Shown here: piece by piece, positions 1,104 through 42,428 of the stretch
How the letters are laid out: each line of letters opens with the position of its first letter
Numbering within the stretch: position 1 is the stretch's first letter
Assembly: GCA_963768655.1 (NCBI GenBank)
Contig: CAVYIM010000004.1
Coordinates: 154,500-218,499, forward strand
From: an uncultured Chloroflexia bacterium
GTDB lineage: Bacteria; Chloroflexota; Limnocylindria; Limnocylindrales; CSP1-4
Length of the DNA: 64,000 nucleotides
Reading direction: 5' to 3'
The notes under the pieces: model-generated
What the model was told of the DNA's origin: nothing
Seen by the model: only the letters and a program-made list of their open reading frames with translations
Database searches by the model: none
Translations under genes and position numbers: made by a program

Positions 1104-1104
1104 C

Positions 1105-2010: not shown

Positions 2011-2149
2011 GAAGGCAGCCCTTCGAGAACGACAAGAGCCGTGGTCGGCGAGGAGTCTTGCAGGTTCGCTCTGGCCTTGGAGGCCTACCCCTGGGTGGCG
2101 TCCGGTCCGCGGTGGACGTGGATGGCAGGTGTTCGAGAAGCGAGGATTC

Positions 2150-4549: not shown

Positions 4550-4559
4550 GCAACCGGCC

Positions 4560-6884: not shown

Positions 6885-6976
6885 CCGCCCCTCCTCCGGC
6901 AGGCTCGGCCCGAGGCGCCGGCCGTCAGGGTTCGGAATCCCCGGCCGCGGTCACGCGCGAGCGTCCACCCGTCTCG

Positions 6977-7393: not shown

Positions 7394-7452
7394 GGTCTCT
7401 CTCCCGGTAGCGTCGCGACCTTGATGTGCCCCTCCGTGCGCGGGCGAATCGG

Positions 7453-7869: not shown

Positions 7870-7983
7870 GTCTCCCTCCCGACGATACTGTCAGGCGGTA
7901 GGAGGTGCACCCCGGCCGGCAGGTCCCCGATCTGTCGCCCGTTGCTCGTGGACGAGGCCGGCGCCGTGCCGGCGAAGACTAGA

Positions 7984-8280: not shown

Positions 8281-8282
8281 GG

Positions 8283-8807: not shown

Positions 8808-8820
8808 GCAGATATCCGAT

Positions 8821-11390: not shown

Positions 11391-11971
11391 CGGGCTACCG
11401 CCGCATGCTGCGGGTTGGTGCCACCGGGGGCTGAGGGCGGTCCGCCGGCGTCACCGCCGGTCGCCTCCCAGGCCGTTTCGAGGTCGACCGCGTCCAGGTC
11501 GACCATGTTGCCGGCCGGCCAGTTGAGCGGTCCGAGCGCTCGAACCTCTTCGGTGACCCGGGCGATCTCGTTTGCCAGGCGGACGCCCTCGGCGGCGCTG
11601 GCCCAGACGAGCTGGAGGCGAGCCGGTTCGATGCCGAGCGCCTCGATCGTTCGCTGCAACAGTTGGAAGCGCCGCAGGGCCTTGTAGTTCTGCTCGATGT
11701 AGTGGCATTCGCCTGGATGGCAGCCGCTGACGAGGACCGCGTCGGCCCCCTCGGCGTAGGCCTTGAGCACGAACGTCGGATCCAGCCGGCCCGAGCACAT
11801 GAGCCTGATCAGGCGCACGTTGGGCGGGTACTTCGTCCGCGCCGTGCCGGCCAGGTCCGCGGCCCGGTAGCTGCACCAGTTGCAGGTGAAGCCGATGATC
11901 ACCGGCTCGAAGGTGGCGGCCGGAGCCGTTCCCTGCGTGGAGGCCGGTGCGACAGGTGCCTGCGCGCTCAT
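11387..11971 (-). CDS. mvhD: methyl-viologen-reducing hydrogenase delta subunit (MvhD-like)
   Basis: Contains the MvhD signature GFTCNWCSY...LMCSGR...VLVSGCHPGECHY. Confidence 0.85.
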   Translation of the reverse strand: MSAQAPVAPASTQGTAPAATFEPVIIGFTCNWCSYRAADLAGTARTKYPPNVRLIRLMCSGRLDPTFVLKAYAEGADAVLVSGCHPGECHYIEQNYKALRRFQLLQRTIEALGIEPARLQLVWASAAEGVRLANEIARVTEEVRALGPLNWPAGNMVDLDAVDLETAWEATGGDAGGPPSAPGGTNPQHAAVAR

Positions 11972-14085: not shown

Positions 14086-15086
14086 TCCTCAACCTCGCTG
14101 TCGGCCATCCGCGGCATCGGCAGAGCCCGCTTGTCGGGCCTGGGCCGGTGCGCGGCAGGTGCGGCCCCGGCGGCCGCGAGCGTCTCCGCGGGGGCCGCCT
14201 TCAGGGCCGCCACCAGCGTCTTCTTCGCGTTCGTGTACTCGCGCCCGACCCCGGCCTTGCCCGGCTCGACGCCGAAGGCCACGGCCATGAGCTGGGTGAA
14301 GAACACGATCGGCATCTTGTAGTGGGTGTGGAACATGGCGTTCATCTCGCCCTGGTAGGCGTCGATGTTGATCTGGCACATCGGGCAGACCGTGACCATC
14401 ATCGCGGCCTCGCGCTTCTCGGCTTCCGCCACCAGGCGCCGGATCAGCTCCAGGCCGACCTTGGGGGCGACCTGGGTCATGTGGCCGCCGCAGCACTCGG
14501 TCTTGAGCGGGTAGTCCACCACGTCCGCGCCGAGGGCTCGAAGCAGGCGGTCGAGATCGTTTGGCTGCTCGTGGTTGGTGTAGGCCCCGTCGATATCCGG
14601 GCGGGGGACCATGCAGCCGAGGTAGGGCGCGACCTTGAGGCCGGTGAGGGGCTTCTTGACCGCGGCCTTGACCCTGTCCAGGCCGACGTCGTTGAGGATC
14701 ACCTCGAGGAGGTGGCGGACCTTGATCGTGCCCGGGTCGTAGTGCAGCCCGCCGGCCCCGAGCGCATCGTTGACGCGGGCGTTGAGCGCGGGCTGCTGGC
14801 CCATGTAGTGGTCCGTCTTGGCCAGGTTGAGGTAGCAGGCGCTGCAGGCGGCGACGAGGGGCTGGCCGTCCTTCTTCTCGCCGGCGGCGATGGCCAGGTT
14901 GCGGGCGATCATTGCGTACGCCGGAGTCGTGCTCAGGCTCACGTACTCGGTGGCGCCGCAGCAGTTCCAGTCGTCGATCTCTTCGAAGGTGATTCCGAGG
15001 GGCTCGCAGATACCTTCGAGGGACTCTCGATAGGAGCGGCCGCTGCCCTCCATGGAGCAGCCCGGGTAGTAGAGGTAGCTGGTCAT
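14082..15086 (-). CDS. hdrB: heterodisulfide reductase subunit B-like (two CCG domains)
   Basis: Starts YYPGCS, has NCCGATEY and TECCGGH (CCG motifs), and overlaps both neighbours. Confidence 0.85.
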   Translation of the reverse strand: MTSYLYYPGCSMEGSGRSYRESLEGICEPLGITFEEIDDWNCCGATEYVSLSTTPAYAMIARNLAIAAGEKKDGQPLVAACSACYLNLAKTDHYMGQQPALNARVNDALGAGGLHYDPGTIKVRHLLEVILNDVGLDRVKAAVKKPLTGLKVAPYLGCMVPRPDIDGAYTNHEQPNDLDRLLRALGADVVDYPLKTECCGGHMTQVAPKVGLELIRRLVAEAEKREAAMMVTVCPMCQINIDAYQGEMNAMFHTHYKMPIVFFTQLMAVAFGVEPGKAGVGREYTNAKKTLVAALKAAPAETLAAAGAAPAAHRPRPDKRALPMPRMADSEVEE

Positions 15087-15670
15087 TGGGCTCGCTCCAG
15101 CTGATCGGCCCGCTGCAGGATCGCCTGCAGTTGCTTCTTCTGGTGGATCTGGTGGGGCAGGATCCCGATCCGACCGTGGCGGAAGAGGCCGAAGGCCATG
15201 GGCGTCATCCCCGGCAACCGCAGGATGTAGTGGCGCAGGTAGTGGCGCGCCGTCAGGCCGATCTCCCAGCTGCGGCCGAAGCGCCTGGCCTGGCCGATGA
15301 AGACGCCGGTGAAGTCGGGCCCGACGTTGTTCGGATAGGTGTGCTCCTCTTCCGCGATGACCTTGAGGGCGTACATCACGTCCGTGATTTCAATGTCCTG
15401 CGGGCAGCGAACCACGCAGTGGTAGCAGGAGAGGCACATCCACGGCGTGTTGCTGTGGAGGACCTCGTCACGCTCGCCGGCGCGGATGAGCGCGAACAGC
15501 CCGCGCGGCGTGTGGTCCATGGCGTCCGCGGAGGGACAGGAACCTCCGCAGGAGCCGCACTGGATGCACATCTCGAGGCGCGAGACGCCTGCAGTCTTCG
15601 CGCCCACCTCGGCGAGGAAACGAACGCCCGCGTCCGTCACCTCCGGAGATGAGACCTGAGCCACGACCAT
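15083..15670 (-). CDS. hdrC: heterodisulfide reductase subunit C-like (2x[4Fe-4S])
   Basis: Contains CIQCGSCGGSCP and CLSCYHCVVRCP. An SD (AAAGGGG) lies 7 nt upstream of the ATG. Confidence 0.85.
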   Translation of the reverse strand: MVVAQVSSPEVTDAGVRFLAEVGAKTAGVSRLEMCIQCGSCGGSCPSADAMDHTPRGLFALIRAGERDEVLHSNTPWMCLSCYHCVVRCPQDIEITDVMYALKVIAEEEHTYPNNVGPDFTGVFIGQARRFGRSWEIGLTARHYLRHYILRLPGMTPMAFGLFRHGRIGILPHQIHQKKQLQAILQRADQLERAQ

Positions 15671-16110
15671 CCAAATGCCCCTTTGGTTACCGGTTTGGCC
15701 CTGGTCGACCTTGCTCCGGTCGCGCGCCGCAGCGGACGTCCGCGCCTACCTCGTGCGCGAGCGTCCGGCAACGGCGGAACCGTTCAGCCACGACCGTCCA
15801 GAGTTTGGCCGGGGTTGCGGGATATGAAGTGGGGACGCCACTGCGCTCTTGCCGGGGCGCTCCGGGCCGGGCTTCGGTGGCAACGGACCGGAGACCGACT
15901 ATGCGGGCCGCGTGACGCGGACCTACCTGTTGCCTTGTAGCTATTCTCGGAAGCCGGGTTCGGTGCCGATAGGGCCGCATGACCCGGCCCATCGGGGGCC
16001 AACCCGCCCGCGTTTCCCGGCCTCTTGGGGCTGGGGCAGCGGACAGCGGCACGACCCATACGGGCGGTATTGGGCTCGTTCGAGGGTGGACGGTAGGGCC
16101 GCCGGTAGAT

Positions 16111-24605: not shown

Positions 24606-26066
24606 TCAGTTGGCCTCCACGGCCGCGGACCGCGAGACGGCCCCGGGCTTCGCCGCGACGCCCGGGAGCGTCCGCGGATCGGTGATGACGCCGGTGACGG
24701 CGCTGGCGGCGGCGGTCAGCGGTGAGGCGAGGAACGAGCGGCCGCCCTTGCCCTGGCGCCCCTGGAAGTTGCGGTTCGAGGTGCTGATGCCGTACTCGCC
24801 GGGCTCGAGCTGGTCGCCGTTCATGGCGATGCACATCGAGCAGCCCGACTCGCGCCACTCCGCGCCGGCCGAGCGGAAGACCTCGTCGAGGCCCTCGCTC
24901 TCGGCCTGGGCCTTGACCTGCTGGCTGCCAGGGACGACCAGGACGCGCAGGCCGTCGGCCACGTGGCGGCCGCGCAGGACCGAAGCCGCGGCGCGCATGT
25001 CCTCGATCCGGCCGTTGGTGCACGAGCCGATGAACACGACGTCGAGCTTCTGGCCGGCGATCGACTTGCCTGCCTGGAGGCCCATGTAGGCGAGCGCACG
25101 CTCGAGGTCGTCTCGGGCGCCCGGCTCGACGTCGGCCGGTCCGGGAATCCGGCCGGTCACCGGCACGCCCATGCCGGGGTTCGTGCCGTAGGTGACCATC
25201 GGCTCGAGCCTGTCGCCGTCGATGACGATCGTTCGGTCGTAGGTCGCGCCGTCGTCGGTCGGCAGCTTGCGCCAGCGGGCGACGGCCTCGTCCCAGGCCG
25301 CTCCCTTCGGGACGAACCTGCGGCCCTTCAGGTAAGCGAACGTTGTCTCGTCCGGGGCGACGAGCCCGGCTCGGGCGCCGCCCTCGATCGACATGTTGCA
25401 GACGGTCATCCGCTCTTCCATCGACAGGGCGCGGATGGCGCTCCCGGTGTACTCGAAAACGTGGCCGGTTCCGCCGCCGATCCCGATGCGGGCGATCAGG
25501 GCGAGGATGATGTCCTTGGCGCCGACGCCGGGCGCCAGCCGTCCGGTCACCTCGACCTTGAAGGTCTTCGGCTTGCGCTGCAGCAGCGTCTGCGTAGCCA
25601 GGACCATCTCGATCTCGCTCGTCCCGATGCCGAACGCCAGTGCCCCGAAGGCGCCGTGCGTGGCGGTGTGGGAGTCGCCGCAGACGATGGTCATGCCCGG
25701 CTGCGTCAGGCCGAGCTCCGGTCCGATCACGTGCACGATGCCGCGCGTCGGGCTGCCCTTGCCGTGGAACGGGATGCCGAACTCGCGGCAGTTCTCCTCG
25801 ATCTGGGCAAGCTGCTTGCGGGCCAGCTCGTCGGCGATCGGCAGCGACGGGTCCAGCGTCGGGATCGAATGGTCAGCGGTGGCGACGGTCTGGCCGGGCT
25901 TTCGAACCTTCAGGCCGCGCTCGCGCAGGCCGGTGAATGCCTGCGGGCTGGTGACCTCGTGGACGAGGTGTAGATCGATCGCGAGGATTGCCGGCGCGCC
26001 GGGGTCGGACGCCACCACGTGGTCGTCCCAGATCTTCTCCAGGATGGTGCGCGGTTTCTCAGCCAT
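24606..26066 (-). CDS. leuC: 3-isopropylmalate dehydratase large subunit
   Basis: The start at 26066 gives [18 protein letters not shown], as in homologs. Contains the aconitase-family motifs [12 protein letters not shown] and GSCTNGR. The longer ORF to 26252 would be encoded by 17-bp repeats and was rejected. Confidence 0.95.
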
Positions 26067-26150
26067 GTTTCCACTCGCGTTCGATTGTCCCGCCTCACAG
26101 CGGACGGGGGTCATCGAATGTACCAGACGAACGCAAACGGGGGCCGACTC

Positions 26151-26279
26151 GTGGGTCACGCGAGCCACCCGAATGCCTGAGCCACGCGAATGCCCGAGCC
26201 ACCCGAATGCCTGAGCCACCCGAATGCCTGGCCCCCCGAATGCCTGAGCCACGCGAATGCCCGAGCCACGCGAAGCTCC
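26151..26279. repeat. 17-bp direct tandem repeat, ~7 units (GAGCCAC[C/G]CGAATGCC[T/C])
   Basis: Units lie at 26162-78, 26179-95, 26196-212, 26213-29, 26230-45 (16 nt) and 26246-62, with a degenerate unit at 26263-79 and a partial unit before 26162. The array lies in the leuC 5' leader region. Confidence 0.9.
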
Positions 26280-26794
26280 TCAACACGCATGGAGTGAGTA
26301 GTAAGTTGGGCTGCCGGCCCGACTCCGGCACACCGAGAGCCCCGGTCGGCATCGGTTAGCCGTAAGTGGCTGACGACGGTCCATCAGGAGCCGAATCCGC
26401 ACCGCCGATTGGCCTCTCATGGACCGGCGGCCTCGCCGGCCGCACTTTGCACTCACCCCATGCGTGATGAGGAATTCCCGGTCGGGTGGGGCCAATCCCG
26501 GCTAGATCCTGGGCGCTCCCCTCGGCGCCCGCGCCGCTCGCCCGCCCCGGCGCCTGCCCCGGCGCGCTCCCCTCGGCCGCAGCGCCGGCCGCTATTCCAG
26601 CGCCGCCCGCAGGCGGAGCAGCGGGGCGACCGCGAGGGCCTGCGCAAGGCGCCGTTCGTGGCGTCCGCGCACCGCCTCGGGGTGCCCGGTGACGTTCGGC
26701 ACTGGCCCGCTACTGCATTTGCCTGAGACGCTTCCGCTGCGAGGCCGCCGCGCGGGGTAGCCGTGCTCTGGGCCGCGCCCGGAGGAGGCGTGAG

Positions 26795-29700
26795 GTGTTG
26801 GCGAGACGTCCCGCCCTTGCTGTAGCGGCGGCCGTGCTGCTTCTTGGTGGCCTGCCGCTTTCGGGAATCGTGCCCTCACGGGTGCTGGCAGGCGCCTCCA
26901 CGACGCCCGTTTCGCGGTCAATAGATGGGATGGAGGATTCAGGCCAGCCCTCGTCCTCGTCCACCCACGACGTTTCGCTGTCCACGCCCTGGACCGTCTT
27001 CGACACGGACGTGGACGTCGTCGGCGGGAATCTGTCCTTCGCCCAGCAGGACCTCACGATCCCCTCGATCGGCTTTGCCACCACCGTCGCCCGGACCTAC
27101 AACAGCGCGGCGGCGAACGTGAACGGACCCTTCGGCTACGGCTGGTTCTGGACCTACGGGCTCAGCGTCGCGGCGGCCTCGGGTGGCGTCGATGTGGCTC
27201 GGGCAGACGGCCGCGTCGACTTCTACGCCAGCAACTCCTCGGGCTACACGCCCCCGGCGGGCATATACGACACCCTCGCGGACACCGCGGGCGGCGGTTG
27301 GACTCTCACCCTGGTCGACCAGATGGTCTACACCTTCGCCGCGGACGGCAGCCTCACGAGTGAGTCCGACCCCAACGGCAACACAGCCACCCTCGCCTAC
27401 ACCAACGGGCTTGTCTCGAGCCTGACCGACACCGCCGGCCGGACCTGGACCTTCATCGCCGCTCCCGACGGCGTCCACGTCGGCGAAGTCGACGACCCGG
27501 CCGGACGCAAGGTCGACTACTCCTACAGCACCGCCGGCGATCTGGTCGGCGTGACCGATGCCACAGGCGCGTCCGAGACGCTCGCCTATGTGAGCCACGA
27601 TCTCACGAGCCTGACCGACGCGAACGGCAACGCGACTACCTACGTCTACAACTCGGGCGGCAGCGTCGCCTCAGTGACCGACGCCCTCTCGCACGCCACG
27701 TCCTTTGCCTACAACCCCGGTTCGCTGCGCACGACCGTCACCGATCCGCGCGGCAACAGCCACTCCTACAGCTACGATCCGACGTCGCGAGTCACCGTCC
27801 TGACCGACGCCCTGGGCGCGTCGGAGTACTGGACCTGGGACAGTTCGAACGATCGCATCTCGGTCATGGATAGGCGCGCCGACGTGACCTCGTATGCGTA
27901 CGATGCCGCGGGCAACATCACCGGCGTGACCGATGCGAACGGCGGCACCGCGAGCGCCGCCTACGACGCGGACAACCACCCGCTTTCACGCACCGATGCC
28001 CTGGGCCGGACCACCACTTACGGCTACGACGGCAACGGGAACCTGACCTCGATCACCGATCCGAACAGCGGCGTGACGGCTTACGGCTACGACAGCTACG
28101 GCGAGCGCACCTCCTCCACCGACGCCGATCACAACACGACCACCTACGGCTACGACGCGGTGGGCAACCTCACCTCGGTCAGCGATGCCCTCAGCGAAAC
28201 GACCACCTACGAGTACGACAGCGCCGGGCGGCAGACACGCATCACCGACCCTGACGGCCGCATCACGCGCTTCACCTACGACGCGCTCGGACGCGAGCTA
28301 TCGACCACGGACGGCGCGGGCGGCGTCACCAGCTGGACCTACGACGCGGTTGGCAACCGCCTGACCCAGCGCGATCCGGACGGCAACGTCACCCACTTCG
28401 CCTACGACGCCGCGAACCACCTGATCAGCACGACCGACGCCCTGGGCCATATCACTACGCTCGGCTACGACGCCAACGGCAACCGCACCTCGGCGGCCGA
28501 TCCTCTGGGCGATACCACGACCACGCAGTACGACCTCGACAACCGGGCCACCAAGGTCATCGACCCCAACAGCCACGCGACCACAACCGCCTACGACGCG
28601 GTCGGCAACCGGGCCTCGGTCACCGACGCCAACGGCCACATCACTTCGTTCACGTACGACCGACTCAACCGCCTGGTGGGCGTCACCGATCCTGCGGGCG
28701 GACACGCCGCCTACACCTACGACGCTGTCGGGAACATGACGAACGTGACCGATCCCAACGGCCACACGACCACGACCACATATGACGTCCTGAACCGCGC
28801 GGTGTCGGAGATCGACCCGCTCACACACGTGCAGTCGAGCACGTACGACGCGGTGGGCAATCTACTGACCCAGACCGACGCCAACGGCGTCACCACCAGC
28901 TACGCCTACGACGCGGCGAACCGGCTGCTCAGCGCGACCTACGCCGAAGGCGGGGTCAGCTACACGTACGACGGGGCGGGGGATCAGGTAAGTGTCACCG
29001 ACGCCGGAGGCACGACGAGTTACACATACGACGGCGCGCGACGGCTGCTCACCAACACGTCGAACGCCGGCACGGTGTCCGCGACCACCGTGACCTACAC
29101 GTACGACGCCGCAGGCAACCTGAAGTCGCTGCAGAACCCCGACGGCACGACCACCCACTACGGCTACGACGCCGACAACCGTCAGGCCTCGGTAACCGAC
29201 TCCAACGGACACGTCAGCTCGTTCGGCTACGACAACGCCGGCCGGCGCATCACCGAGGATCTGCCCAACGGCACCCATGGCGTCTGGGCCTACGACGCCG
29301 CCTCGCAGGTCACTTCGATCACCTGGACCGGCCCCGCGAGCCAGACCCTCTCCACGATCAAGTACAGCTACGACCCCGTCGGCAACAAGACCGAGATCGA
29401 CGACAACAGCGGCAAGAACGGCTTCAGCTATGACGCGCTCGACCGGCTGGTCTCGGCCTCGTACGGCGGCCGCGGCGTCAACGTCACCTACGCCTACGAC
29501 CCAGCTGGCAACCGGACGTCGATGACGGTCAGCGGTATCACCACGACCTACACGTACGATGCCGCCAACCGCCTGCTCAGCGTGAACGGGAGCCAGGTCA
29601 CCTCCGACGGCAACGGGAACGTGCTGGTCCTCGGCAGCCAGAGCTTCGCCTACGACTCACGCAACCGCCTCGTGGAGGCAGTGACCGGGTCGGTGACCGA

Positions 29701-32700
29701 GCACTTCGCCTATGACGGCGCCGATCAGCGCGCGAGTACCTCGGTCAACGGCGCGGCGACCAGCTACGCCTACGACGAGCATGGCCAGCTGGCCCAGGTC
29801 GTCACCGAGTCGGGCTCGGCCGCCAGTCATGTCTATGGCCTCGATGGTCAGGTCCTTTGGGATGTCTCGAGCGACCAGGGCACGACCTACTACCAGCAGG
29901 ACGCGATGGGCTCGACGACCATGCTCACCGCGGCGGACGGCTCGGTGAGTGGAACGCGTTACTACGACGCCTTCGGCTCGCCGGTCTCGGCGCAGGTTGG
30001 TTCGGGTTCCTATTGGTATGACGGCCAGCAGTACGACGAGAACAGCGGCCTGATCTACCTCCGTGCCCGTTACTACGACGCCGCCCTCGGCCGCTTCCTC
30101 TCGCCCGACACGGCCACGCCTGACTACGCCGACACGCAGTCGCTGAACCAGTACGTCTTCGCCCAGAACAACCCTCTGCGGTTCGAGGACCCGAGCGGGA
30201 AGTTCCTGCAAGTGCTGCTGGGCGCTGCGATCGGAGCGGCAGTCGGCGCTACTGCGGACGTAGGCATGACCTTGCTCACCGATTATGTCTCCAACGGCGG
30301 GCATTTCTCCGATGACCTCGGCGCGAAGGTAGCTGGCGCGGCCGTGTCGGGCGCCATCGAGGGCGGCATCGACGTTGGCCTCGCGACGGCGACTGGCGGA
30401 GCATCCCTTGTCGCCGGTAGCCTCGGGAGCGGCGTGGCAGACGCGGCGGGTTACGCGACAACCGCGGCGCTGGACGAGTACTTCTACCACAAGCCCACTA
30501 CAACATCTGATCTAGTGACCGGCATTGCTGTGCATGGAGTCTTGGGGATGGCCGAAGGTGGCCTATCGCAGGGCATTGCCGATCGCCTCGTCCCAAATAC
30601 CTCATCTGTCCTGAACTCGTTGGTGTCGGGCACGGTAAGCGGCCTGTTCGAGGGCGTCGAGGGCTATTTCGAGAACCCGACCGCCTTGGCTCCCGGTGAG
30701 CTCGCCAGCCCCGCTGGCGGACAGTGGCGCGGCTTCGGCGCGGGCGGTGGTGGCGCTGCATGGGGTAGCGGTGGCGTCAGCGGAGGCGGCGGTGCCTACG
30801 TGCCAGCCACTTTCAGTCCCACGCCGCCCACGATGCCGGAGCCGAGCGGGCCGGTTGTGCTGGTGTGCGATGGAGCCAATTTCTCGCCCAGCTGCGTCGA
30901 CCTTGCCCCCGGGGCGTACGCGGACCTGTCCGTGTTCGGGATGGACAAGCGGATCACGTCCTTCCGGGCCTCCGGCTACCAGGTCACGCTCTTCGATCAG
31001 CTCAATTTCGGGGGCAACGCCACCTACTACAGCGGCGACGTGGCCCAGCTGGCAGCTGGCCTGGACAACACGGCCCGCTCAATCCGAATTCTGCCGGTCG
31101 CCTCCGGCTCCTGGTCGCAGGTGACTCCGTCCGGTTTGATTCCTCTCGCCCGCTACGGTGGCGTCTCGGTCTGGGATCCCACCGACAAGGTCCAGCTCGT
31201 CTTCGGCGGCAATGGCTCTGGTATCGGCTTCCTCAACGACATGTGGGCCTACAGCCCGGCGGCCAGCACCTGGAGCCAGCTCCTGCCCGCCTCCGGGTCG
31301 CCGACGACGAGCTTCGGCTATTACGCCCGTGGCGCCTGGGATAGCGCCGATGGCGAGCTGCTCCTGTGGGGCAATGACTGCACCTCTACGTGCGTGAGCC
31401 AGCTCTGGAGCTTCGTGCCGAGCACCCGGATCTGGACCAAGTTGAGCCCCACCGGCACCGCGCCCGGAGCGGGCTATCCCGTCGTCTGGGATACGGTGGG
31501 CAAGCGGCTCCTCGTCGTCGACTCTTCGGGCAACGTCACCGCCTACAGCCCCACCACCAATGCCTGGGCGGCGCTCACCACCGGGACGACAAAGCCGTCG
31601 AACAACTTGGGTGTGGCCTGGGATAGCACCGATGGGATCGTGCTCCAGTTCGGTGGCGGCAGGAGCTGCAACAATGGCAACTGCAACGATCTATGGGCCT
31701 ACTCGCCGGTCGCGGGCACCTGGACCCAGCTGACCGCGACCAACCCGCCTGGCCTGCGATCCAACGAGCAGCTCGTCTGGGACAGCGTCCACAACCAGTT
31801 GCTCGTCGTCGACGGCAGCAGCTACATCAACGGCATCTCGACCTACTACGACGACGTCTGGGCCTACAGCGTGGCCCAGAGCCGCTGGCAGCAGCTCACC
31901 GTCAGTGGCACGCATCCTGCGGCACGGTGGTATGCCGATCTAGTCTTCGATCCCACCGACGACATCGCTCTTCTCTTTGGCGGCTCCAGCTCCACGACCA
32001 GCTTCCTTGGCGATCTGTCGGCCTATCAGCCAACGGCTCTTACTCTGCCGACCGGGCCGATCTCGGGCGCTCCAAACGCCTGGAGCCCTGCTCCAACCAT
32101 TACCAGCCCTCTCGCCCGCTACGGTGGCGTCTCGGTCTGGGATCCCACCGACAAGGTCCAGCTCGTCTTCGGCGGCAATGGCTCTGGTATCGGCTTCCTC
32201 AACGACATGTGGGCCTACAGCCCGGCGGCCAGCACCTGGAGCCAGCTCCTGCCCGCCTCCGGGTCGCCGACGACGAGCTTCGGCTATTACGCCCGTGGCG
32301 CCTGGGATAGCGCCGATGGCGAGCTGCTCCTGTGGGGCAATGACTGCACCTCTACGTGCGTGAGCCAGCTCTGGAGCTTCGTGCCGAGCACCCGGATCTG
32401 GACCAAGTTGAGCCCCACCGGCACCGCGCCCGGAGCGGGCTATCCCGTCGTCTGGGATACGGTGGGCAAGCGGCTCCTCGTCGTCGACTCTTCGGGCAAC
32501 GTCACCGCCTACAGCCCCACCACCAATGCCTGGGCGGCGCTCACCACCGGGACGACAAAGCCGTCGAACAACTTGGGTGTGGCCTGGGATAGCACCGATG
32601 GGATCGTGCTCCAGTTCGGTGGCGGCAGGAGCTGCAACAATGGCAACTGCAACGATCTATGGGCCTACTCGCCGGTCGCGGGCACCTGGACCCAGCTGAC

Positions 32701-35700
32701 CGCGACCAACCCGCCTGGCCTGCGATCCAACGAGCAGCTCGTCTGGGACAGCGTCCACAACCAGTTGCTCGTCGTCGACGGCAGCAGCTACATCAACGGC
32801 ATCTCGACCTACTACGACGACGTCTGGGCCTACAGCGTGGCCCAGAGCCGCTGGCAGCAGCTCACCGTCAGTGGCACGCATCCTGCGGCACGGTGGTATG
32901 CCGATCTAGTCTTCGATCCCACCGACGACATCGCTCTTCTCTTTGGCGGCTCCAGCTCCACGACCAGCTTCCTTGGCGATCTGTCGGCCTATCAGCCAAC
33001 GGCTCTTACTCTGCCGACCGGGCCGATCTCGGGCGCTCCAAACGCCTGGAGCCCTGCTCCAACCATTACCAGCCCTCTCGCCCGCTACGGTGGCGTCTCG
33101 GTCTGGGATCCCACCGACAAGGTCCAGCTCGTCTTCGGCGGCAATGGCTCTGGTATCGGCTTCCTCAACGACATGTGGGCCTACAGCCCGGCGGCCAGCA
33201 CCTGGAGCCAGCTCCTGCCCGCCTCCGGGTCGCCGACGACGAGCTTCGGCTATTACGCCCGTGGCGCCTGGGATAGCGCCGATGGCGAGCTGCTCCTGTG
33301 GGGCAATGACTGCACCTCTACGTGCGTGAGCCAGCTCTGGAGCTTCGTGCCGAGCACCCGGATCTGGACCAAGTTGAGCCCCACCGGCACCGCGCCCGGA
33401 GCGGGCTATCCCGTCGTCTGGGATACGGTGGGCAAGCGGCTCCTCGTCGTCGACTCTTCGGGCAACGTCACCGCCTACAGCCCCACCACCAATGCCTGGG
33501 CGGCGCTCACCACCGGGACGACAAAGCCGTCGAACAACTTGGGTGTGGCCTGGGATAGCACCGATGGGATCGTGCTCCAGTTCGGTGGCGGCAGGAGCTG
33601 CAACAATGGCAACTGCAACGATCTATGGGCCTACTCGCCGGTCGCGGGCACCTGGACCCAGCTGACCGCGACCAACCCGCCTGGCCTGCGATCCAACGAG
33701 CAGCTCGTCTGGGACAGCGTCCACAACCAGTTGCTCGTCGTCGACGGCAGCAGCTACATCAACGGCATCTCGACCTACTACGACGACGTCTGGGCCTACA
33801 GCGTGGCCCAGAGCCGCTGGCAGCAGCTCACCGTCAGTGGCACGCATCCTGCGGCACGGTGGTATGCCGATCTAGTCTTCGATCCCACCGACGACATCGC
33901 TCTTCTCTTTGGCGGCTCCAGCTCCACGACCAGCTTCCTTGGCGATCTGTCGGCCTATCAGCCAGTCGGCATGCCTGGAGCACCGAGCGGAGTCGTCGCC
34001 ACGCGCGGCAACACCACCGCGAGCATCTCCTGGGTGGCGCCGGTCTGGACAGGCGGGACTCCGATTACCGGCTACACGGTTACGAGCGCTCCTGCCGGCT
34101 TGACCTGCACCACCACCGGGGCGACCACCTGCACCGTCTCCGGCCTTTCCAACGGCACCTCCTACACGTTCACCGTCACGGCGACCAACCTGATGGGGAC
34201 CGGTCCCGCCTCAGCGCCGTCCGCGGCAGTCATACCGGCCACACTGCCGGCCGCGCCGACGGGTGCGACCGCGCAGCGTGGGAACGCCTCCGCCCTTGTC
34301 AGCTGGACCGCGCCGTCGAGCACCGGCGGGATCCCGATCACCGGGTACACCGCTACCAGCTATCCGGGCGGGCTGACGTGCGCGACGACCGGCGCGACCT
34401 CGTGCACCGTCTCCGGCCTGACGAACGGCACTTCGTACGCGTTCACCGTCGCAGCCACCAATGACGTCGGGACTGGGCCGGCGTCGGCGGCCTCTTCGCC
34501 TGTCATTCCGGCTGCCCTGCCCGGACCTCCGACCGGAGTCGCCGCCACGAGCGGACCGACATCGGCCAGCGTGATGTGGACGGCGCCGGCGGTCACGGGC
34601 GGCAGCCCGATAACCGGCTACACCGTCACGAGCTTGCCCGGGGCAAAGACCTGCACAACGACCGGCGCGAAGACGTGCACCGTGACCGGCCTCACCAACG
34701 GCACCGCCTACACGTTCACAGTCACGGCGACGAACCTCGTGGGCACCGGCCTGCCGTCGGCGCCTTCGGCGGCCGTTACGCCGCTTGGGCCACCGGCGGC
34801 CCCGACGGGCGCTACCGCCACTCGAGGCAACGCTTCGGCCGTTGTCTTCTGGACGGCACCCAGCGACAACGGCGCGAGCCCGATTACCGGCTACACGGTG
34901 ACGAGCTCTCCGGACAGCCAGACCTGCACCTGGACGAGCGGACCGCTCTCCTGCACCGTGATGGGCCTGACCAACGGCACGGCCTACACGTTCACCGTCA
35001 CTGCAACCAACAGCGTTGGGACCGGCCCGGCTTCGAGCCCGTCCGCCGCCGTGACGCCTGCCACGACGCCCGACCCGCCCAGCGGAGTCACCGGTACCCG
35101 GGGTAACACCTCGGTGCTCGTGTCGTGGACTGCGCCGTACAGCGGCGGCAGCCCGATCACGGGGTACACCGTTACGAGCTCTCCATACTCCCAGAACTGC
35201 ACCAGTACCGGTGCCACGATGTGCACCGTGACCGGTCTGACCAACGGTCAGGCTTACACGTTCACCGTAACCGCCACCAACGCGGTTGGGACCGGGCCGG
35301 CGTCCGCCTCCTCAGATCCAGTCACACCCGCAACCCTTCCTGGCGCGCCCAGCGGAGTCATCGTCGCCCCCGCCGATGCTGCGGTTACGGCGTGGTGGAC
35401 CGCCCCATCGAGCGACGGCGCGAGCCCCATCACGGGCTACACGGTCACGAGCTCGCCTGGCGGCCTGACGTGCACCACGACGGGCGACCTCACCTGCACC
35501 GTGACCGGCCTGACCAACGGTCAGCCGTACACCTTCACCGTCACGGCCACGAACGACGTCGGGGTCGGGCCTGCATCGGCAGCGTCGCTGGCGGTGACTC
35601 CCGTCACGGTCCCAGACGTCCCGACCGGCGTGGCGGCAACTCGTGGCAACGGCGAAGTCCTCGTGTCGTGGACCGCCCCGGCCGATACGGGCGGCCTGCC

Positions 35701-38700
35701 GATCACTGGCTACGTTGCCATCTCTGATCCCGACGGAGACACGTGCTCGACGACCGGCGCCACCAGCTGCATGGTGACCGGGCTCACCAACGGCCAGGGA
35801 TACACGTTCACTGTCCTGGCTGCCAATGACGTCGGAGTCAGCGATCCGTCGGATCCTTCCACCTCCGTGACACCCGACGCCGTGCCCGATCCACCAACAG
35901 ACGTGATCGCCACCGCCGGCGACTCGTCCGCCAGCGTCACATGGTCGGCCCCATCCGACAACGGGACCATCATCACCGCCTACACGGTCACGAGCTCGCC
36001 CGATGGCTGGACCTGCGCCACTACGGACGAGCTCACCTGCGTTGTGACCGACCTGTCCAACGGCACGGCCTACACCTTCACCGTAACCGCATCGAGTGAC
36101 GCCGGGCCTGGCCTGCCATCGGCGCCTTCGGCCCCGATCACGCCGGCCGCGCTCCCCGACGCACCTACAGATGTGACTGCCGCGCCAGGCAATGGTTCAG
36201 CCCTGGTGAGCTGGACCGCACCCTCGGACAACGGCTCTCCGATCACTGGCTACACCGTGACAAGCTCGCCTGACGGCAAGACCTGCGCCTGGACAAGCGG
36301 GCCACTCTCCTGCGCCGTGACCGGCCTCACAAACGGGACCGCCTACAGCTTCACCGTAACCGCGACCAACGGTGTCGGGACGGGCTCTTCTTCTGCGGCG
36401 TCGAGCAAGGTCACTCCCGCCACTGCGCCGGGTGCACCGACGGGAGTGAGCGGTGTCCGCGGGAACGGCTCGGTTCTGGTTTCCTGGACCGCGCCGGCAT
36501 CAGATGGTGGCGCCGCCATCACGCTCTACACCGTGACGTCGTCGCCGGGCTCGAAGACCTGTACCTGGGCGACGGGGTCGCTCTCCTGCACCGTCACCGG
36601 ACTCACCAACGGCACCGCCTACACCTTCACCGTGACGGCGACTAACGGCGTCGGCACCGGTCTAGCCTCGGCCGCCTCGAACAGCGTCACCCCGGCCACG
36701 GTGCCGGGGGCGCCGACTGCCGTGGCCGCCACCCGCGGAAACGCCTCGGCGGTGGTCTCCTGGACCGCGCCAGCATCGAATGGCGGCAGCGTCATCACGC
36801 TCTACACCGTGACAAGCTCGCCCGACGGCAAGACCTGTACATGGACGAGCGGGCCGCTCTCCTGCACCGTGTCCGGCCTGACCAACGGCACCGCCTACAC
36901 CTTCACCGTAACCGCCACCAACGGCGTCGGTACAGGGGCCCTGTCTACCGCTTCGGCATCGGTCACTCCTGCCACGGTGCCCGGCGCTCCCACCGGCGTG
37001 ACGGCCACGCGAGGGAACGCCTCGGCTCTCGTGTCCTGGACTGCTCCAGGCTCGAATGGTGGAGTTGCCATCACCGGCTACGCCGTGACGTCCACTCCTG
37101 ACTCGAAGACGTGCACCTGGACCACCGGTGCTCTCTCCTGCACCGTGTCGGGCCTGACCAACGGCACGGCCTACACCTTCAGCGTGACCGCCACCAACAG
37201 CGTCGGGACCGGTCTGGCCTCGGCCGCCTCGAACAGCGTCACTCCGGCCACCGTGCCCGGTGCGCCCACCGCGGTCAGTGCCACCCGGGGCAACGCAGCC
37301 GCCACTGTCTCCTGGAGCGCGCCAGCCTCAACTGGCGGCAGCGCCATCACTGCCTACACCGTGACAAGCTCCACTGGGTCGAAGACCTGCACCACCGCCG
37401 GTGCCGTCAGCTGCACCGTCACCGGACTCACCAACGGCACCGCCTACACCTTCACCGTGACGGCGACTAACGGCGTCGGCACCGGCGCTGCGTCCGCCGC
37501 TTCGGCGTCGGTGACACCGGCCACCTTCCCAGGCGCTCCCACCGCCGCGACCGCGACGCGCGGCAACACGTCTGCCACCGTGTCCTGGACGGCAGGGGCG
37601 ACCAATGGCGCGGCGATCTCTGCTTATCAGGTGATCGCCAAGCCGGAGGGTGAATCCTGTACCACCACCGGTGCTCTCTCCTGTACCGTGTCGGGTCTGA
37701 CCAACGGCACCGCCTACACCTTCACCGTAACCGCCACCAACAGCGTCGGGACCGGTCTGGCCTCGGCCGCCTCGAACAGCGTCACTCCGGCCACCGTGCC
37801 TGGTGCACCGACGGCCGTCACCGTCACCCGCGGCAACGCCGCGGTGCTCGTGTCCTGGACCGCCCCGTCAGCCAACGGCAGTCCCATCACCGCCTACACG
37901 GTCACGAGCTCCACTGGCTCCAAGACCTGTACCACCACCGGTGCTCTCTCCTGCACCGTGTCCGGCCTGACCAACGGCACCGCCTACACCTTCACCGTCA
38001 AGGCCACCAACAGCGTCGGTACAGGGGCCGCGTCGGCGGCCTCCGCATCGGTGACACCCACGACCGTGCCCGGCTCACCGACGGCCGCCACGGCCGTCCG
38101 AGGCAACGCCGCGGCTGCCGTGTCCTGGACCGCCCCGTCGGTCACCGGCTCCAGCTCGATAACCGGCTACACCGTCACCAGTTCGCCTGGCTCCAAGACC
38201 TGTACCACCACCGGTGCTCTCTCCTGTACCGTGTCGGGTCTGACCAACGGCACCGCCTACACCTTCACCGTAACCGCCACCAACAGCGTCGGGACCGGTC
38301 TGGCCTCGGCCGCCTCGAACAGCGTCACTCCGGCCACCGTGCCTGGTGCACCGACGGCCGTCACCGTCACCCGCGGCAACGCCGCGGTGCTCGTGTCCTG
38401 GACCGCCCCGTCAGCCAACGGCAGTCCCATCACCGCCTACACGGTCACGAGCTCCACTGGCTCCAAGACCTGTACCACCACCGGTGCTCTCTCCTGCACC
38501 GTGTCCGGCCTGACCAACGGCACCGCCTACACCTTCACCGTCAAGGCCACCAACAGCGTCGGTACAGGGGCCGCGTCGGCGGCCTCCGCATCGGTGACAC
38601 CCACGACCGTGCCCGGCTCACCGACGGCCGCCACGGCCGTCCGAGGCAACGCCGCGGCTGCCGTGTCCTGGACCGCCCCGTCGGTCACCGGCTCCAGCTC

Positions 38701-39790
38701 GATAACCGGCTACACCGTCACCAGTTCGCCTGGCTCCAAGACCTGTACCACCACCGGTGCTCTCTCCTGTACCGTGTCGGGTCTGACCAACGGCACGGCC
38801 TACACCTTCACCGTAACCGCCACCAACAGCGTCGGGACCGGTCTGGCCTCGGCCGCCTCGAACAGCGTCACTCCGGCCACCGTGCCTGGTGCACCGACGG
38901 CCGTCACCGTCACCCGCGGCAACGCCGCGGTGCTCGTGTCCTGGACCGCCCCGTCAGCCAACGGCAGTCCCATCACCGCCTACACGGTCACGAGCTCCAC
39001 TGGCTCCAAGACCTGTACCACCACCGGTGCTCTCTCCTGCACCGTGTCCGGCCTGACCAACGGCACCGCCTACACCTTCACCGTCAAGGCCACCAACAGC
39101 GTCGGTACAGGGGCCGCGTCGGCGGCCTCCGCATCGGTGACACCCACGACCGTGCCCGGCTCACCGACGGCCGCCACGGCCGTCCGAGGCAACGCCGCGG
39201 CTGCCGTGTCCTGGACCGCCCCGTCGGTCACCGGCTCCAGCTCGATAACCGGCTACACCGTCACCAGTTCGCCTGGCTCCAAGACCTGTACCACCACCGG
39301 TGCTCTCTCCTGTACCGTGTCGGGTCTGACCAACGGCACGGCCTACACCTTCACCGTAACCGCCACCAACAGCGTCGGGACCGGTCTGGCCTCGGCCGCC
39401 TCGAACAGCGTCACTCCGGCCACCGTGCCTGGTGCACCGACGGCCGTCACCGTCACCCGCGGCAACGCCGCGGTGCTCGTGTCCTGGACCGCCCCGTCAG
39501 CCAACGGCAGTCCCATCACCGCCTACACGGTCACGAGCTCCACTGGCTCCAAGACCTGTACCACCACCGGTGCTCTCTCCTGCACCGTGTCCGGCCTGAC
39601 CAACGGCACCGCCTACACCTTCACCGTCAAGGCCACCAACGCCCTGGGCACGGGAGCCGCCTCGGCCGCATCGGCCTCGGTGACACCCACGACCGCCGCG
39701 GTCACGTCGTCTTCAGAGCTCGGAACCGGACCGGCGACCACAGACCCGGGGCAGACAGCGGGTCGCCCGCGGACGGACTCTCGGCTCTGA
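26795..39790 (+). CDS. giant secreted Rhs/YD-repeat protein with C-terminal Kelch-propeller and FN3 arrays (4,331 aa)
   Basis: The GTG start lies 6 nt after GGAGGAGG, and the N-terminus looks like a Sec signal ([13 protein letters not shown]...LAGA). Dozens of YDxxGN...TD repeats are present, and the Rhs core ends at [17 protein letters not shown] (aa ~1120-1136). After that come a Gly-zipper-like segment and a beta/gamma-crystallin-like unit. Three 322-aa Kelch units and 21 FN3 domains complete the protein. Confidence 0.9.
31142..33964 (+). repeat. intragenic tandem repeat, 966-bp unit x ~2.9, apparently 100% identical
   Basis: Identical sequence recurs at offsets of 966 nt (31142, 32108, 33074). 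Even the off-frame ORFs in the track are identical between copies (for example 31693..32310 equals 32659..33276). Copy 3 diverges after CTATCAGCCA at 33964. Confidence 0.95.
37656..39640 (+). repeat. intragenic tandem repeat, 543-bp unit (two FN3 domains) x ~3.65, near-identical
   Basis: Period of 543 nt (for example TGGCTCCAAG at 38188, 38731 and 39274). The only difference I saw is ACC versus ACG in AACGGCAC[C/G]GCC: copies 1-2 carry C and copies 3-4 carry G. The array ends where ...GCCACCAAC is followed by GCCCTGGGC instead of AGCGTCGG. Confidence 0.9.
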
Positions 39791-39833
39791 CCCCAGGGCT
39801 GTTGGCGGTCGCCCGAGGGCTTGCGTAGGCTCG

Positions 39834-42428
39834 TCAGTCCAGCTCCAGCGACGCCCGCAGGCGGATATCGCGCGAGGAGGCACCGACCAGGATCTCGAAC
39901 CGGCCGGGCTCGATTCGCCAGCCGCCGCCGGCTTCGTCCCAGTAGGCCAGATCGCGGTCCTGGAGAGCGAAGGAGACGTCGACGCTCTCGCCCGGCGCCA
40001 GGTGCACTGCCGTGAAGCCCTTCAGCTCGCGCGGCGGGCGCGGGACCGACGACTCCAGGTCGGCGACGTAGACCTGCACCACTTCCTTGCCGGGGCGGCC
40101 ACCCGCGTTGCGCAGCCGAACCTTCAGCTGGGCCGAGTCACCGGCGGGCAGGCCGTCGGCGGTGACTTCGAGCGACTCGAACTCGATGCGGGCGTAGCCC
40201 AGGCCGTGCCCGAAGCAGAACCTCGGTTCGATCCCCGCGATGTCGAAGTGGCGGTAGCCCAGGTTGACGCCCTCGGCATAGACCAGTTCCTCCCGCTCGC
40301 CCGGCATCGTGCTGAGCGCGGGATAGTCGCATTCGCGGACGGCGATCGTGAAGGGCAGCCGCCCGCCCGGCTCGGCGGCGCCGAGCAGTACGTCGGCGAG
40401 GGCGCTGCCGAATTCCTGGCCCGGCAGCCAGGCGTACAGGACGGCAGCGACTCGATCTGCCCAGGGCAGATCCATCGGGCAGCCGGCGTTGACGACGACG
40501 ACGGTCCTGCGGTTGGCCGCGGCGACGCGCTCGACGAGCTCGTTCTGGCGGCCGGGTAGCGTGACGGTCGTGCGGTCGCGGCCCTCGGATTCCCAGTGCT
40601 CGTCGTTGCCGACGACGACGATCGCCACGTCTGCCGTGGCGGCCGCGGCGGCGGCTCGCTCCAGCTGGTCCGCCGCCTGCGGAGGACGGCAGCCGATGTT
40701 GAGCTGGTACGGGGAGTGAGTCGCCGAATGAATCTCGGCTTCGATGAGCACCGGCTCGCCGGCTCGAAGCTCGAATGTGCCGCCGTCCCGGCTGCCTTCG
40801 AACAGGGCCGTCGGGATGTCGGCCGCGGGACGGGCGTCCCAGAGGTCCGCCGCCACGACACCACCAACCTTCAGCCGCCGGCCGCCGAATCCGCGCAGCT
40901 CGATGTCGTGCGGACCGCTCTCGGACGGAGTGAGCCGGCAGGACAGGCGCACGGCGAAGTCGTCGGCCGCGATGCCGTGGGGCAGGTCGCCGAATATGTG
41001 CAGCTCGCTCGAGTCGACATGCCAGCTGGCGACAGGATCGCCGGCCGGCTCCTGGCCGTGGAAGAACTCGACCGTGAGGCCGGGCTGGCCGTGGAGGTCG
41101 CGCACGTCCATCGCGCTCAACGGCGGCAGGAACAGGTCGATGTGGCAGCCCGGTTCGTGGACTATCTCGGCTCCCGGGAGCGCGGCCCGCAGCCCCTCGA
41201 TCGGAGTCACCGTGGGCGGGGCGGCGATGTTGGCCGCACCGCCTCCCTGGGCGCACGGTTTGGAGGCGTTGGGCCCGATGACCGCCAGCTTGCGGATGCC
41301 GGCCGGAGCGAGCGGCAAGGTGCCGTCGTTGGTCAGCAGCACGAACGACTCGGCGGCGGCCCGGCGCACGAGGGCCGAAGCCGCGGCGTCGGACAGGTGC
41401 CAGGGCTGCTCGGGATCGAGCGGCGCGTTGCCGGGGCCGGAGCCGGCGAGCGGCCGCGCGCCCGCGCCCTCGGCCCGCGCGCGGGCGCCCTCGGCCCGCG
41501 CGCCCACGCGACCGGCGCCCCCCGAGGCTCCACCTCCGACCAGTGCCCCGACGCGCGCCGCGAGCAACAGTATCCGGCGTGCCTTGTCGTTCAGGACCGC
41601 TTCGCTCACCTCGCCCCGCCTGACCGCCTCGCCCAGCACCGGGCCCAAGAAGCGGGCAGGACCGGGCATCTCCAGGTCCAGTCCGGCCAGGGCTCCGGCG
41701 ACGGTGTCGTCGGCGGCGTGCCAGTCGGACATCAGCACGCCGTCCCAGCCCCACTCGCCCTTCAGAATCTCGCGGACCAGGTGATCGTGATCGACGCAGT
41801 GGACTCCGTTGACGAGGTTGTAGGCGGCCATGATCGACCACGCCCCGGCGTTCGCGGCGGCCTCGAAGGGGACCAGGTAGACCTCGCGCAAGGTCCTCTC
41901 GTCGACCCGGCAGTCGACCGAGGTGCGGTGGGTCTCGGATTCGTTGGCGACGAAGTGCTTAGGCGTGGCGGCCACTCCCGCCGACTGCATTCCCGCGACG
42001 TAGGCGGCGCCGAGCACGGCGGCCAGAACCGGATCCTCGGAGTACGCCTCGAAATCCCGGCCGCCCAGCGGTGAGCGGACGAGGTTGAGCACCGGCCCCA
42101 GCATGTAGTGGACGCCGGCCCGCTTCGCCTCGGCGCCGATCCGGGCCGCGACCTCGCGGACCAGATCCACGTCCCAGGTCGCGCCGAGGGCAGTGCCGCA
42201 CGGCGTGCACGTGGCCGTCGAACCGGCCGGGAAGGTCATGCCCCGAGCGCCGTTCGGGCCGTCCAGCGTGACCATCGGCGCGAGGCCGATCGAGGGCGCG
42301 CCGCACGGGTGCCAGGCGTCGACCCCGCCCGTCAACGCGGCCTTCTCCTTTATGCCGAGAGCCCCCAGGAGCTCTTCCAGGCGTTCGGGGCTGATCGGGC
42401 TGTCGGGAGCGGGGCGGGCGACCTGCAT
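39834..42428 (-). CDS. GH3 beta-glucosidase with PA14-like insertion and C-terminal Fn3-like domain
   Basis: The ATG at 42428 gives MQVARPAP. Contains SEDPVLAA, KHFVANESE and GVLMSDW (GH3 nucleophile region), and a C-terminal part ending VYVADLESSVPRPPRELKGF. The upstream part of the 1,147-aa ORF looks non-coding. Confidence 0.9.
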   Translation of the reverse strand: MQVARPAPDSPISPERLEELLGALGIKEKAALTGGVDAWHPCGAPSIGLAPMVTLDGPNGARGMTFPAGSTATCTPCGTALGATWDVDLVREVAARIGAEAKRAGVHYMLGPVLNLVRSPLGGRDFEAYSEDPVLAAVLGAAYVAGMQSAGVAATPKHFVANESETHRTSVDCRVDERTLREVYLVPFEAAANAGAWSIMAAYNLVNGVHCVDHDHLVREILKGEWGWDGVLMSDWHAADDTVAGALAGLDLEMPGPARFLGPVLGEAVRRGEVSEAVLNDKARRILLLAARVGALVGGGASGGAGRVGARAEGARARAEGAGARPLAGSGPGNAPLDPEQPWHLSDAAASALVRRAAAESFVLLTNDGTLPLAPAGIRKLAVIGPNASKPCAQGGGAANIAAPPTVTPIEGLRAALPGAEIVHEPGCHIDLFLPPLSAMDVRDLHGQPGLTVEFFHGQEPAGDPVASWHVDSSELHIFGDLPHGIAADDFAVRLSCRLTPSESGPHDIELRGFGGRRLKVGGVVAADLWDARPAADIPTALFEGSRDGGTFELRAGEPVLIEAEIHSATHSPYQLNIGCRPPQAADQLERAAAAAATADVAIVVVGNDEHWESEGRDRTTVTLPGRQNELVERVAAANRRTVVVVNAGCPMDLPWADRVAAVLYAWLPGQEFGSALADVLLGAAEPGGRLPFTIAVRECDYPALSTMPGEREELVYAEGVNLGYRHFDIAGIEPRFCFGHGLGYARIEFESLEVTADGLPAGDSAQLKVRLRNAGGRPGKEVVQVYVADLESSVPRPPRELKGFTAVHLAPGESVDVSFALQDRDLAYWDEAGGGWRIEPGRFEILVGASSRDIRLRASLELD

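Follow-up and report, generated by a model that had tools for sequence, protein, structure and literature searches.

A giant Chloroflexota protein with a predicted Rhs/YD cocoon followed by thousands of residues of Kelch propellers and FN3 domains: a possible cocoon-headed adhesin-like fibre

The current picture of an Rhs/YD cocoon is that of a sealed container for a small toxin. To our knowledge, the polypeptide chain leaves the shell only in the teneurins and the mosquito SGS proteins, which are eukaryotic derivatives. In the stretch of DNA analysed here (the window), which comprises 64,000 nucleotides from an uncultured Chloroflexia bacterium (GenBank assembly GCA_963768655.1, contig CAVYIM010000004.1, positions 154,500 to 218,499), a gene at 26795..39790 on the plus strand encodes a protein of 4,331 residues and ~434 kDa, whose Rhs core is followed by 3,195 further residues made up largely of Kelch propellers and FN3 domains. 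SGS1 offers a precedent for chain exit. By cryo-electron microscopy, the "daisy-chained" helices behind its core lie inside the shell, which encloses ~230 residues; beyond these, the chain goes on to a furin site and the Tox-SGS domain. The teneurin chain also leaves its shell (PMC9935623). The reading that we favour for the window protein, and to which we give about an even chance, is that of a cocoon-headed adhesin-like fibre, where a plug of ~190 residues sits inside the shell, the chain then exits, and the array lies outside.

The gene is a single open reading frame (ORF) of 12,996 nt and 4,331 codons with a GTG start and no internal stop. The chance of finding 4,332 stop-free codons at 69% GC is ~1e-39, a base-composition estimate that takes the stop rate of random codons as ~2%. 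The GC content of third codon positions (GC3) stays at 0.76-0.88 in each segment of the ORF, so its full length looks coding. A first-pass annotation made from the letters of this DNA had described such an uninterrupted ORF with a strong Shine-Dalgarno sequence and a Sec-like signal peptide, and both descriptions are borne out. The 19-residue Kyte-Doolittle maximum of the signal peptide, 2.29, is the peak of the whole protein, and since it contains no Cys the peptide is not of the lipoprotein type. The parts of the gene are as follows.

26781..26788 (+): Shine-Dalgarno sequence GGAGGAGG, 6 nt upstream of the GTG at 26795, read from the sequence
26795..26890 (+): predicted Sec-type signal peptide, residues 1-32, likely cleavage VLA-GAS, from translation and hydropathy
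27011..27217 (+): DUF6531, the N-terminal plug of the Rhs cocoon, residues 73-141 (Pfam PF20148, E 2.6e-11)
27242..29962 (+): YD/Rhs repeat shell, residues ~150-1056, with 21 RHS_repeat stretches (Pfam)
29963..30202 (+): Rhs-associated core (aspartyl autoprotease), residues 1057-1136 (NCBIfam TIGR03696 at 1057-1135, E 7.7e-19)
30203..30694 (+): Gly/Ala-rich helical segment, putative lumen cargo or plug, residues 1137-1300, ~165 residues with four helices
30695..30853 (+): Gly-rich and then Pro-rich linker, putative cocoon exit, residues 1301-1353, with GGAYVP at 1332-1337
30854..31093 (+): beta/gamma-crystallin-like domain, residues 1354-1433, with the Cys pair C1358/C1367
31142..33961 (+): three six-bladed Kelch propellers, residues 1450-2389 (Pfam Kelch families, E 1e-83)
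33965..39688 (+): 21 FN3 domains, residues 2391-4298 (Pfam fn3, E 4.7e-278, 21 stretches)
39689..39790 (+): Ser/Thr/Pro/Gly tail of 33 residues, 4299-4331, and stop

The N-terminal part compares most closely with the Rhs/YD toxins, represented here by B. subtilis WapA and by RhsA, RhsP, Tse5 and Tse15 of type VI secretion systems (T6SS; PDB 7q97, 8h8a, 8cp6, 8qja). These share with the window protein the DUF6531 plug, a YD shell of ~1,000 residues and a core with the R/D/D residues and DPxG, and they provide its best sequence and fold matches; WapA-type Gram-positive proteins also have its Sec signal. The first-pass annotation had placed YD/Rhs repeats at residues 60-1136, ending in the core motif. 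Repeats and core were both recovered, but the region begins at ~73, which leaves only 40 residues between the signal peptide and DUF6531. In an AlphaFold2 run over residues 146-1345 with an alignment of 31 sequences, residues 146-1123 were modelled with a predicted local distance difference test (pLDDT) score of ~90. The solved T6SS Rhs cocoons ranked first when this shell model was searched with Foldseek (E 1e-65 to 1e-50, best 1.7e-65), with a template-modelling (TM) score of 0.57/0.70 for RhsP, and a bacterial teneurin-like protein, teneurins, TcB-TcC and SGS1 followed at lower ranks. The model points to an Rhs cocoon of standard size.

The core, whose motif with DPSGK lies at residues 1125-1136, seems to have kept its autoprotease. 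Catalysis needs one Arg and two Asp, the last of which is missing in teneurins (PMC9935623). R1092, D1105, D1132 and G1135 stand in invariant columns of an alignment with 30 other Rhs proteins (31 in total), and the catalytic R1092/D1105/D1132 align to R650/D663/D686 of YenC2 and to the site of SGS1/SGS4. Because these residues are conserved and aligned to known sites, the autoprotease is predicted to be active, cutting at K1136-F1137, and the cut would yield fragments of 116 and 315 kDa (computed masses). The first DPxG of the core has become DTAT plus an insertion of 4-5 residues, a trait common to two diverged loci introduced below, L082 and L083.

Shell, plug and core together place the protein in the Rhs/YD cocoon family. 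Two features that define an Rhs polymorphic toxin system are absent from it. No toxin family was matched in scans with Pfam and NCBIfam, in agreement with the proposal of the first-pass annotation that the post-core region is not a toxin. No immunity-like gene was found downstream either, where a convergent GH3 gene ends 47 nt past the stop with no small ORF in between. It also differs from the Rhs/YD toxins in the size of its post-core region and in that its adhesion-type domains stand behind the shell and not ahead of it.

The unusual length of the post-core region was judged against 160 other distinct Rhs post-core regions, taken partly from 79 loci of a metagenome scan and partly from the 120 closest shell homologues. 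The 79 loci were found with scan patterns that stemmed from the Rhs core alone, and they are mostly ordinary Rhs that served as a comparison set. The median length in this collection is 205 residues and a single region exceeds 500, so that the 3,195 residues found here amount to ~15 times the median. In the 75 nearest shell homologues whose core could be recognised, the post-core region spans 56-422 residues, and the extra Ig, FN3 or beta-helix domains of near homologues are N-terminal to the shell, as in P0175. Solved Rhs-type structures have ~90-250 residues after the core, according to chain lengths and alignment ends (PMC9935623). Since solved shells hold no more than this, 3,195 residues cannot fit the cocoon. 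The claim of the first-pass annotation that the cargo is too big to be encapsulated therefore stands for the region as a whole, but its first ~190 residues are cargo-sized. The sole other long case among the 160 is a Rhs protein of 2,671 residues from a JGI metagenome (L137, 6983-14998), in which 1,609 residues follow a first DPLGL core; among them are a small domain and a further region of DUF6531 and YD repeats, and FN3-like repeats lie at the C-terminus.

The stretch just behind the predicted cut has its own character. Residues 1137-1300 are 33% Gly and Ala and contain 21 small-xxx-small-xxx-small motifs and 15 acidic residues. The first helix (1137-1160) reaches a Kyte-Doolittle value of ~1.6, while the later ones stay below 1.1 and carry Asp and Glu. 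The linker that follows has 17 Gly and 8 Pro in 53 residues. The motif GGA[YR]VP with its Pro-rich stretch lies 196, 195 and 183 residues past the predicted cut in the window protein, L083 and L082, respectively, although the sequence between cut and motif is barely alignable among the three. The 196 residues of the window protein agree with the median post-core length of 205 residues. The conserved spacer length agrees with the capacity of known shells, which is the main argument for placing only the first ~190 residues inside. In length and place, these residues correspond to an ordinary Rhs cargo.

From these observations the following course can be proposed. Sec would export the whole protein, and residues ~73-1136 would then fold into a closed YD shell, as homology and the confident model suggest. 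The aspartyl autoprotease, given its conserved residues, would cleave K1136-F1137. To judge by size, position and spacing, the lumen would hold only the next ~190 residues, that is, four weakly hydrophobic Gly/Ala helices and a Gly-rich stretch, and the chain would exit the shell at the GGAYVP/Pro-rich linker. Outside would lie the disulfide-stabilised crystallin domain, then the three Kelch propellers and, as a stalk, the 21 FN3 domains, with the ~116-kDa cocoon still joined to the ~315-kDa adhesin-like fibre via the helical plug alone. The most plausible task of the fibre would be to bind or reach a surface, be it the cell's own wall, a neighbour or prey, and the cocoon would shield a helical N-terminus that is membrane-active or sticky; both functions are speculative.

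An exhaustive HMMER search was run with residues 1137-1440 against 1.84 billion representative proteins. Its helical part was matched by two proteins only, P0001 and P0026, and the other matches, ~130 representatives of the beta/gamma-crystallin type, fall on the crystallin part alone. In a scan of this segment by itself, the Pfam family Crystall reaches 26.9 bits, above the cut-off of 25, and Protein S (PDB 1prr) matches at E 0.008; the single crystallin-like unit of the first-pass annotation is thus weak but real. Its three complete six-blade Kelch units were likewise recovered. They are 966 nt (322 residues) each, identical at 100% of DNA positions, with six blade-like repeats apiece on internal alignment, and the third lacks the inter-unit linker of 25 residues. 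An AlphaFold2 model of the crystallin domain and the first Kelch unit, made with no alignment, reached a pLDDT of 44, too low for use. The proposed 21 FN3 domains with a conserved Cys pair hold as well, as the pattern C...C.V.GL (regular expression) occurs in 21/21, and the last eight of them are four exact copies of a 543-nt unit.

The cysteines divide the protein in two. Residues 1-1357 have none, and all 56 occur later as 28 close pairs: each propeller has two, and the crystallin domain and every FN3 domain have one each. Such pairs indicate extracytoplasmic domains of the disulfide type, and hence that the array is exported together with the shell. The FN3 array is 45-66% identical to those of many secreted Actinomycetota-type proteins, and the order of Kelch and then FN3 is also present in P0303, so that the C-terminal part looks like a recruited adhesin module, in which the Kelch propellers and the crystallin domain are candidates for the ligand-binding parts. 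Fibrillar adhesins of the Gram-positive or Actinomycetota type have a similar tandem FN3 stalk with paired Cys in every domain. They differ in that no LPXTG, S-layer or other anchor was found in the window protein, and in that its "head" is a toxin-type cocoon with an autoprotease.

Among known families, the protein would by analogy work most like SGS1. SGS1 and SGS4 (mosquito salivary proteins; PDB 8fjp, 9on3; PMC9935623) have a YD shell with intact autoprotease residues, a hydrophobic Gly/Ala helix right behind DPxG-x, and a helical cargo of ~200-300 residues followed by a domain outside the shell. In a HMMER search against the PDB, the alignment of the core runs 90-115 residues into the SGS4/SGS1 helices. 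Homology of the window helices to those of SGS1 was considered and dropped after an isolated PDB search came back empty at E<=10, and the resemblance was kept as an analogy, treated as positional and compositional and not as proven homology. The window helices are also far less hydrophobic and give no significant match when searched alone. In SGS1, the receptor domains (propeller, carbohydrate-binding module, lectin) are N-terminal to or on the shell and are absent from the window protein, whereas the external C-terminal domain, Tox-SGS, has ~300 residues against 2,980 here and no Pfam match in the window protein. The SGS proteins are furthermore eukaryotic and lack a classical signal peptide.

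The helices behind the core allow for another reading, in which the protein is a conventional polymorphic Rhs toxin, with the Gly/Ala-zipper helices as a membrane-depolarising or pore-forming effector, the array serving for targeting or retention, and immunity encoded elsewhere or unneeded. A hydrophobic Gly/Ala helix stands right behind DPxG-x in 56 of the 160 distinct post-core regions (35%), and a group of gut Firmicutes Rhs has ~113 helical residues ahead of PT-HINT and Tox-SHH; the continuation of the core alignment into the SGS1/SGS4 helices and the intact autoprotease residues would fit this reading too. We nonetheless consider it unlikely, given the lack of an immunity-like gene before the convergent GH3 end. 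Moreover, the helices would still be covalently tied after cleavage to an array of 3,000 residues, with no second processing domain matched in Pfam, and the first helix alone is hydrophobic enough for a membrane, in a segment with 15 acidic residues.

The same helices could instead form a transmembrane hairpin that anchors the protein in the producer's membrane, leaving both cocoon and array outside. The hydropathy of helix 1137-1160 and the absence of any other recognised anchor speak for this, as does the fact that the equivalent helices of SGS1 were long predicted to be transmembrane. These helices were in the end found inside the SGS1 shell (PMC9935623). In the window protein, the low hydropathy and the Asp/Glu of the later helices make a return pass improbable, and a single pass would put the 28 disulfide-type Cys pairs in the cytoplasm. 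A membrane hairpin is therefore very unlikely.

Several observations count against the cocoon-headed fibre as well. AlphaFold2 drew the post-core helices but scored residues 1124-1345 at a pLDDT below 35, so that their placement, inside or outside the shell, is unconfident and their encapsulation is inferred; the modelling of shell and junction suggested by the first-pass annotation thus succeeded for the shell but not for the post-core part. Residues 1137-1300 alone have no Pfam match and no PDB match at E<=10, SGS1/SGS4 included, and phmmer comparisons of the helices with 178 other Rhs post-core regions gave 9-15 bits only. The best structural matches come from T6SS-type Rhs cocoons, and these are sealed, with no exit that we know of. 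No cell anchor was found: the tail has no LPXTG, no anchor family matched in Pfam or NCBIfam, and the signal peptide has no lipobox Cys. The first-pass annotation had already seen no C-terminal anchor, and without one the "surface fibre" is an assumption. Finally, the relatives discussed below are all metagenomic, two of them come from error-prone frameshifted assemblies, and L083 has an in-frame TGA.

A variant with a small chance of being right would turn the cocoon into a self-cleaving, removable cap over the hydrophobic N-terminus of the 315-kDa adhesin. On contact with a target, the plug would come out of the shell and insert into a foreign or neighbouring membrane, fixing the Kelch/FN3 fibre to it in the manner of a harpoon or tether. 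If this were true, a small family of "inverted" Rhs proteins would exist in which the delivered cargo is the anchor, and interchangeable arrays (Kelch/FN3, LamG/Kelch or beta-helix-like repeats) would replace interchangeable toxins.

If the cocoon-headed fibre is confirmed, it would provide a bacterial case where a cargo-sized plug and a conserved exit motif precede extracellular domains that span thousands of residues, and where the variable C-terminal module is an adhesin-type array and not a toxin. It would also offer a tractable bacterial model for the exit of a polypeptide from a YD shell, for the role of the common post-core hydrophobic helix, and for the repurposing of the cocoon from toxin delivery to adhesion.

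A teneurin-like arrangement, the second option of the first-pass annotation, finds no backing beyond a chain that leaves the shell. Teneurins and teneurin-like proteins (TLPs; PDB 6fb3, 9ifo/9pt5; PMC13018210) do combine a shell with a beta-propeller and FN-type domains and have a proposed role in surface adhesion, and the C-terminal chain of metazoan teneurins can emerge from the YD shell. TLPs are defined by the superfold of FN-plug, NHL propeller and YD shell (PMC13018210). Membership was rejected as neither FN-plug nor NHL is among the Pfam hits of the window protein, whose plug is DUF6531. Its propellers are of the Kelch type, triplicated and C-terminal to the shell. TLPs have C-terminal domains of ~15 kDa on average and carry their adhesion domains on the N-terminal side (PMC13018210), whereas the C-terminal part here is ~20 times larger; metazoan teneurins also lack the last catalytic Asp, which the window protein has. 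The Tc toxin TcB-TcC (PDB 4o9x, 4igl) shares the YD shell, the aspartyl autoprotease and an unfolded cargo of ~200 residues (PMC9935623). Unlike it, the window protein has no TcB-like half, gate propeller or TcA partner, and its cargo is followed by a huge array.

The architecture appears, from the sequences searched, to be very rare, occurring in few metagenomic relatives only. A scan of a genome collection with residues 1106-1420 returned no relative, and no published description was found in the literature searched, which accords with the view that this is not a common, characterised family. Homologues with the order YD shell, Kelch and FN3 had been called for: one locus repeats it, and two others share the plan with different arrays.

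The first of these, L001, is an ENA contig from another assembly that carries P0001 and represents essentially the same locus. It is at least 99% identical to the window from the second half of the shell through core, helices, crystallin domain, Kelch units and the first FN3 domains (28985-36441), and ~75% identical over 27040-28985 (N-terminal YD repeats) and 36441-39838 (distal FN3). Its positions 1-13361 look like a closed loop of 13.3 kb, made of the gene with 255 nt upstream and 47 nt downstream, joined head to tail. The loop covers window positions 26540-39837, with 39837 followed directly by 26540, and the two ends of the contig meet at 33961-33962. The distal FN3 units of L001 all differ from one another, being 61-76% alike, in contrast to the exact copies in the window (37656-39584). 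This mosaic points to a tandem duplication whose two copies have diverged, to a strain variant or recombinant allele, or to a collapse during assembly, while the exact repeats of the window reflect either recent amplification or gene conversion, or homogenisation during assembly. Because the DNA repeats are exact, their copy numbers depend on assembly quality. The architecture is unaffected by the mosaic; the copy numbers and the distal FN3 sequence are less certain.

The second locus, L082, encodes P0026, with Rhs, DPSGK-V and a helical segment; its crystallin domain shares 54% identity with that of the window, and over Rhs, helices and crystallin domain together the identity is 43%. Beyond this, at 11500-16040, at least 4.5 kb of repeats of ~190 residues follow across several frameshifts of the kind common in noisy long-read assemblies. 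An EPLC..C pair is conserved in these repeats, which Pfam does not match and which may be adhesin repeats resembling a beta-helix. The third, L083, which came from the metagenome scan, has an Rhs core with the PDY..TQSLN insertion seen in the window, DPTGN-L, helices, the GGAYVP linker and Ig/FN3-like domains, and past the TGA a LamG domain and a Kelch propeller that have no signal peptide of their own. These two divergent loci follow the plan of the window protein, each with a different long repeat array.

The relatives also bear on the idea that the gene is a chimera made by the assembly, or else a pseudogene or the product of a recent accidental fusion, in which a toxin-less Rhs gene reads through into a neighbouring adhesin gene. 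Exact repeats of 966 nt (three copies) and 543 nt (four copies) invite mis-assembly, L001 has its head-to-tail join and diverges by ~25% from the window in two blocks, and the window's own genome was absent from the matches of the genome-collection scan. Against this, the junction of Rhs and post-core region is free of repeats and present in L001 at an identity of at least 99%; Rhs, helices and crystallin domain are kept together in L082, and the plan recurs in L083. The coding GC3 is uniform, and the ends of L001 meet precisely where Kelch gives way to FN3, which would be expected if that junction too is real. The chance that the gene is such an artefact is in our view very slim.

The surroundings of the gene suggest a lineage-specific insertion. 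The host is a soil or freshwater member of the Chloroflexota related to Limnocylindria. Chloroflexota are regarded as monoderm, and the LeuC of the window is closest (85%) to that of a Chloroflexota metagenome-assembled genome (MAG), followed by MAGs of Ca. Limnocylindrales/Limnocylindria. The distance from leuCD to ilvBNC is 1-6 kb in related MAGs versus 21 kb in the window (26253-47228), where the interval holds the giant gene, a GH3/PA14 glycosidase and an MMPL transporter. None of 80 relatives has a Rhs, Kelch or FN3 match at the equivalent locus. With leuCD and ilvBNC close together in relatives and no such match there, the giant gene is part of an insertion specific to its lineage, placed amid housekeeping genes in a cluster for amino-acid biosynthesis.

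Some smaller observations concern the start of the gene and its flanks. The n-region of the signal peptide has RR; Tat export, which this might suggest, was judged unlikely on general grounds for a protein of 434 kDa with 28 Cys pairs. Promoter, terminator and Rfam scans of 25900-26900 gave no match. A 22-nt match (21/22) links 26596-26617, upstream of the giant gene, with 39844-39865 at the 3' end of the GH3 gene (E 4e-4 within the window), and the minus strand of both copies encodes ..LRLRA.LE-stop. The match may be due to chance, or it may be what is left of a GH3 end that was duplicated at the border of the insertion. At the 5' end or leader of leuC, 26162-26274 consists of a 17-nt tandem repeat, consensus GAGCCACCCGAATGCCT, with 6.7 copies and 89% matches, for which Rfam gave no match; the annotated start of leuC lies ~40-65 codons ahead of where its homologues begin to align. 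Elsewhere in the window, 2129-6884 holds two tandem GH31 genes, and 8821-15670 on the minus strand is an operon of NiFe-hydrogenase large and small subunits and heterodisulfide-reductase-like proteins (CCG domain, 4Fe-4S, flavin adenine dinucleotide).

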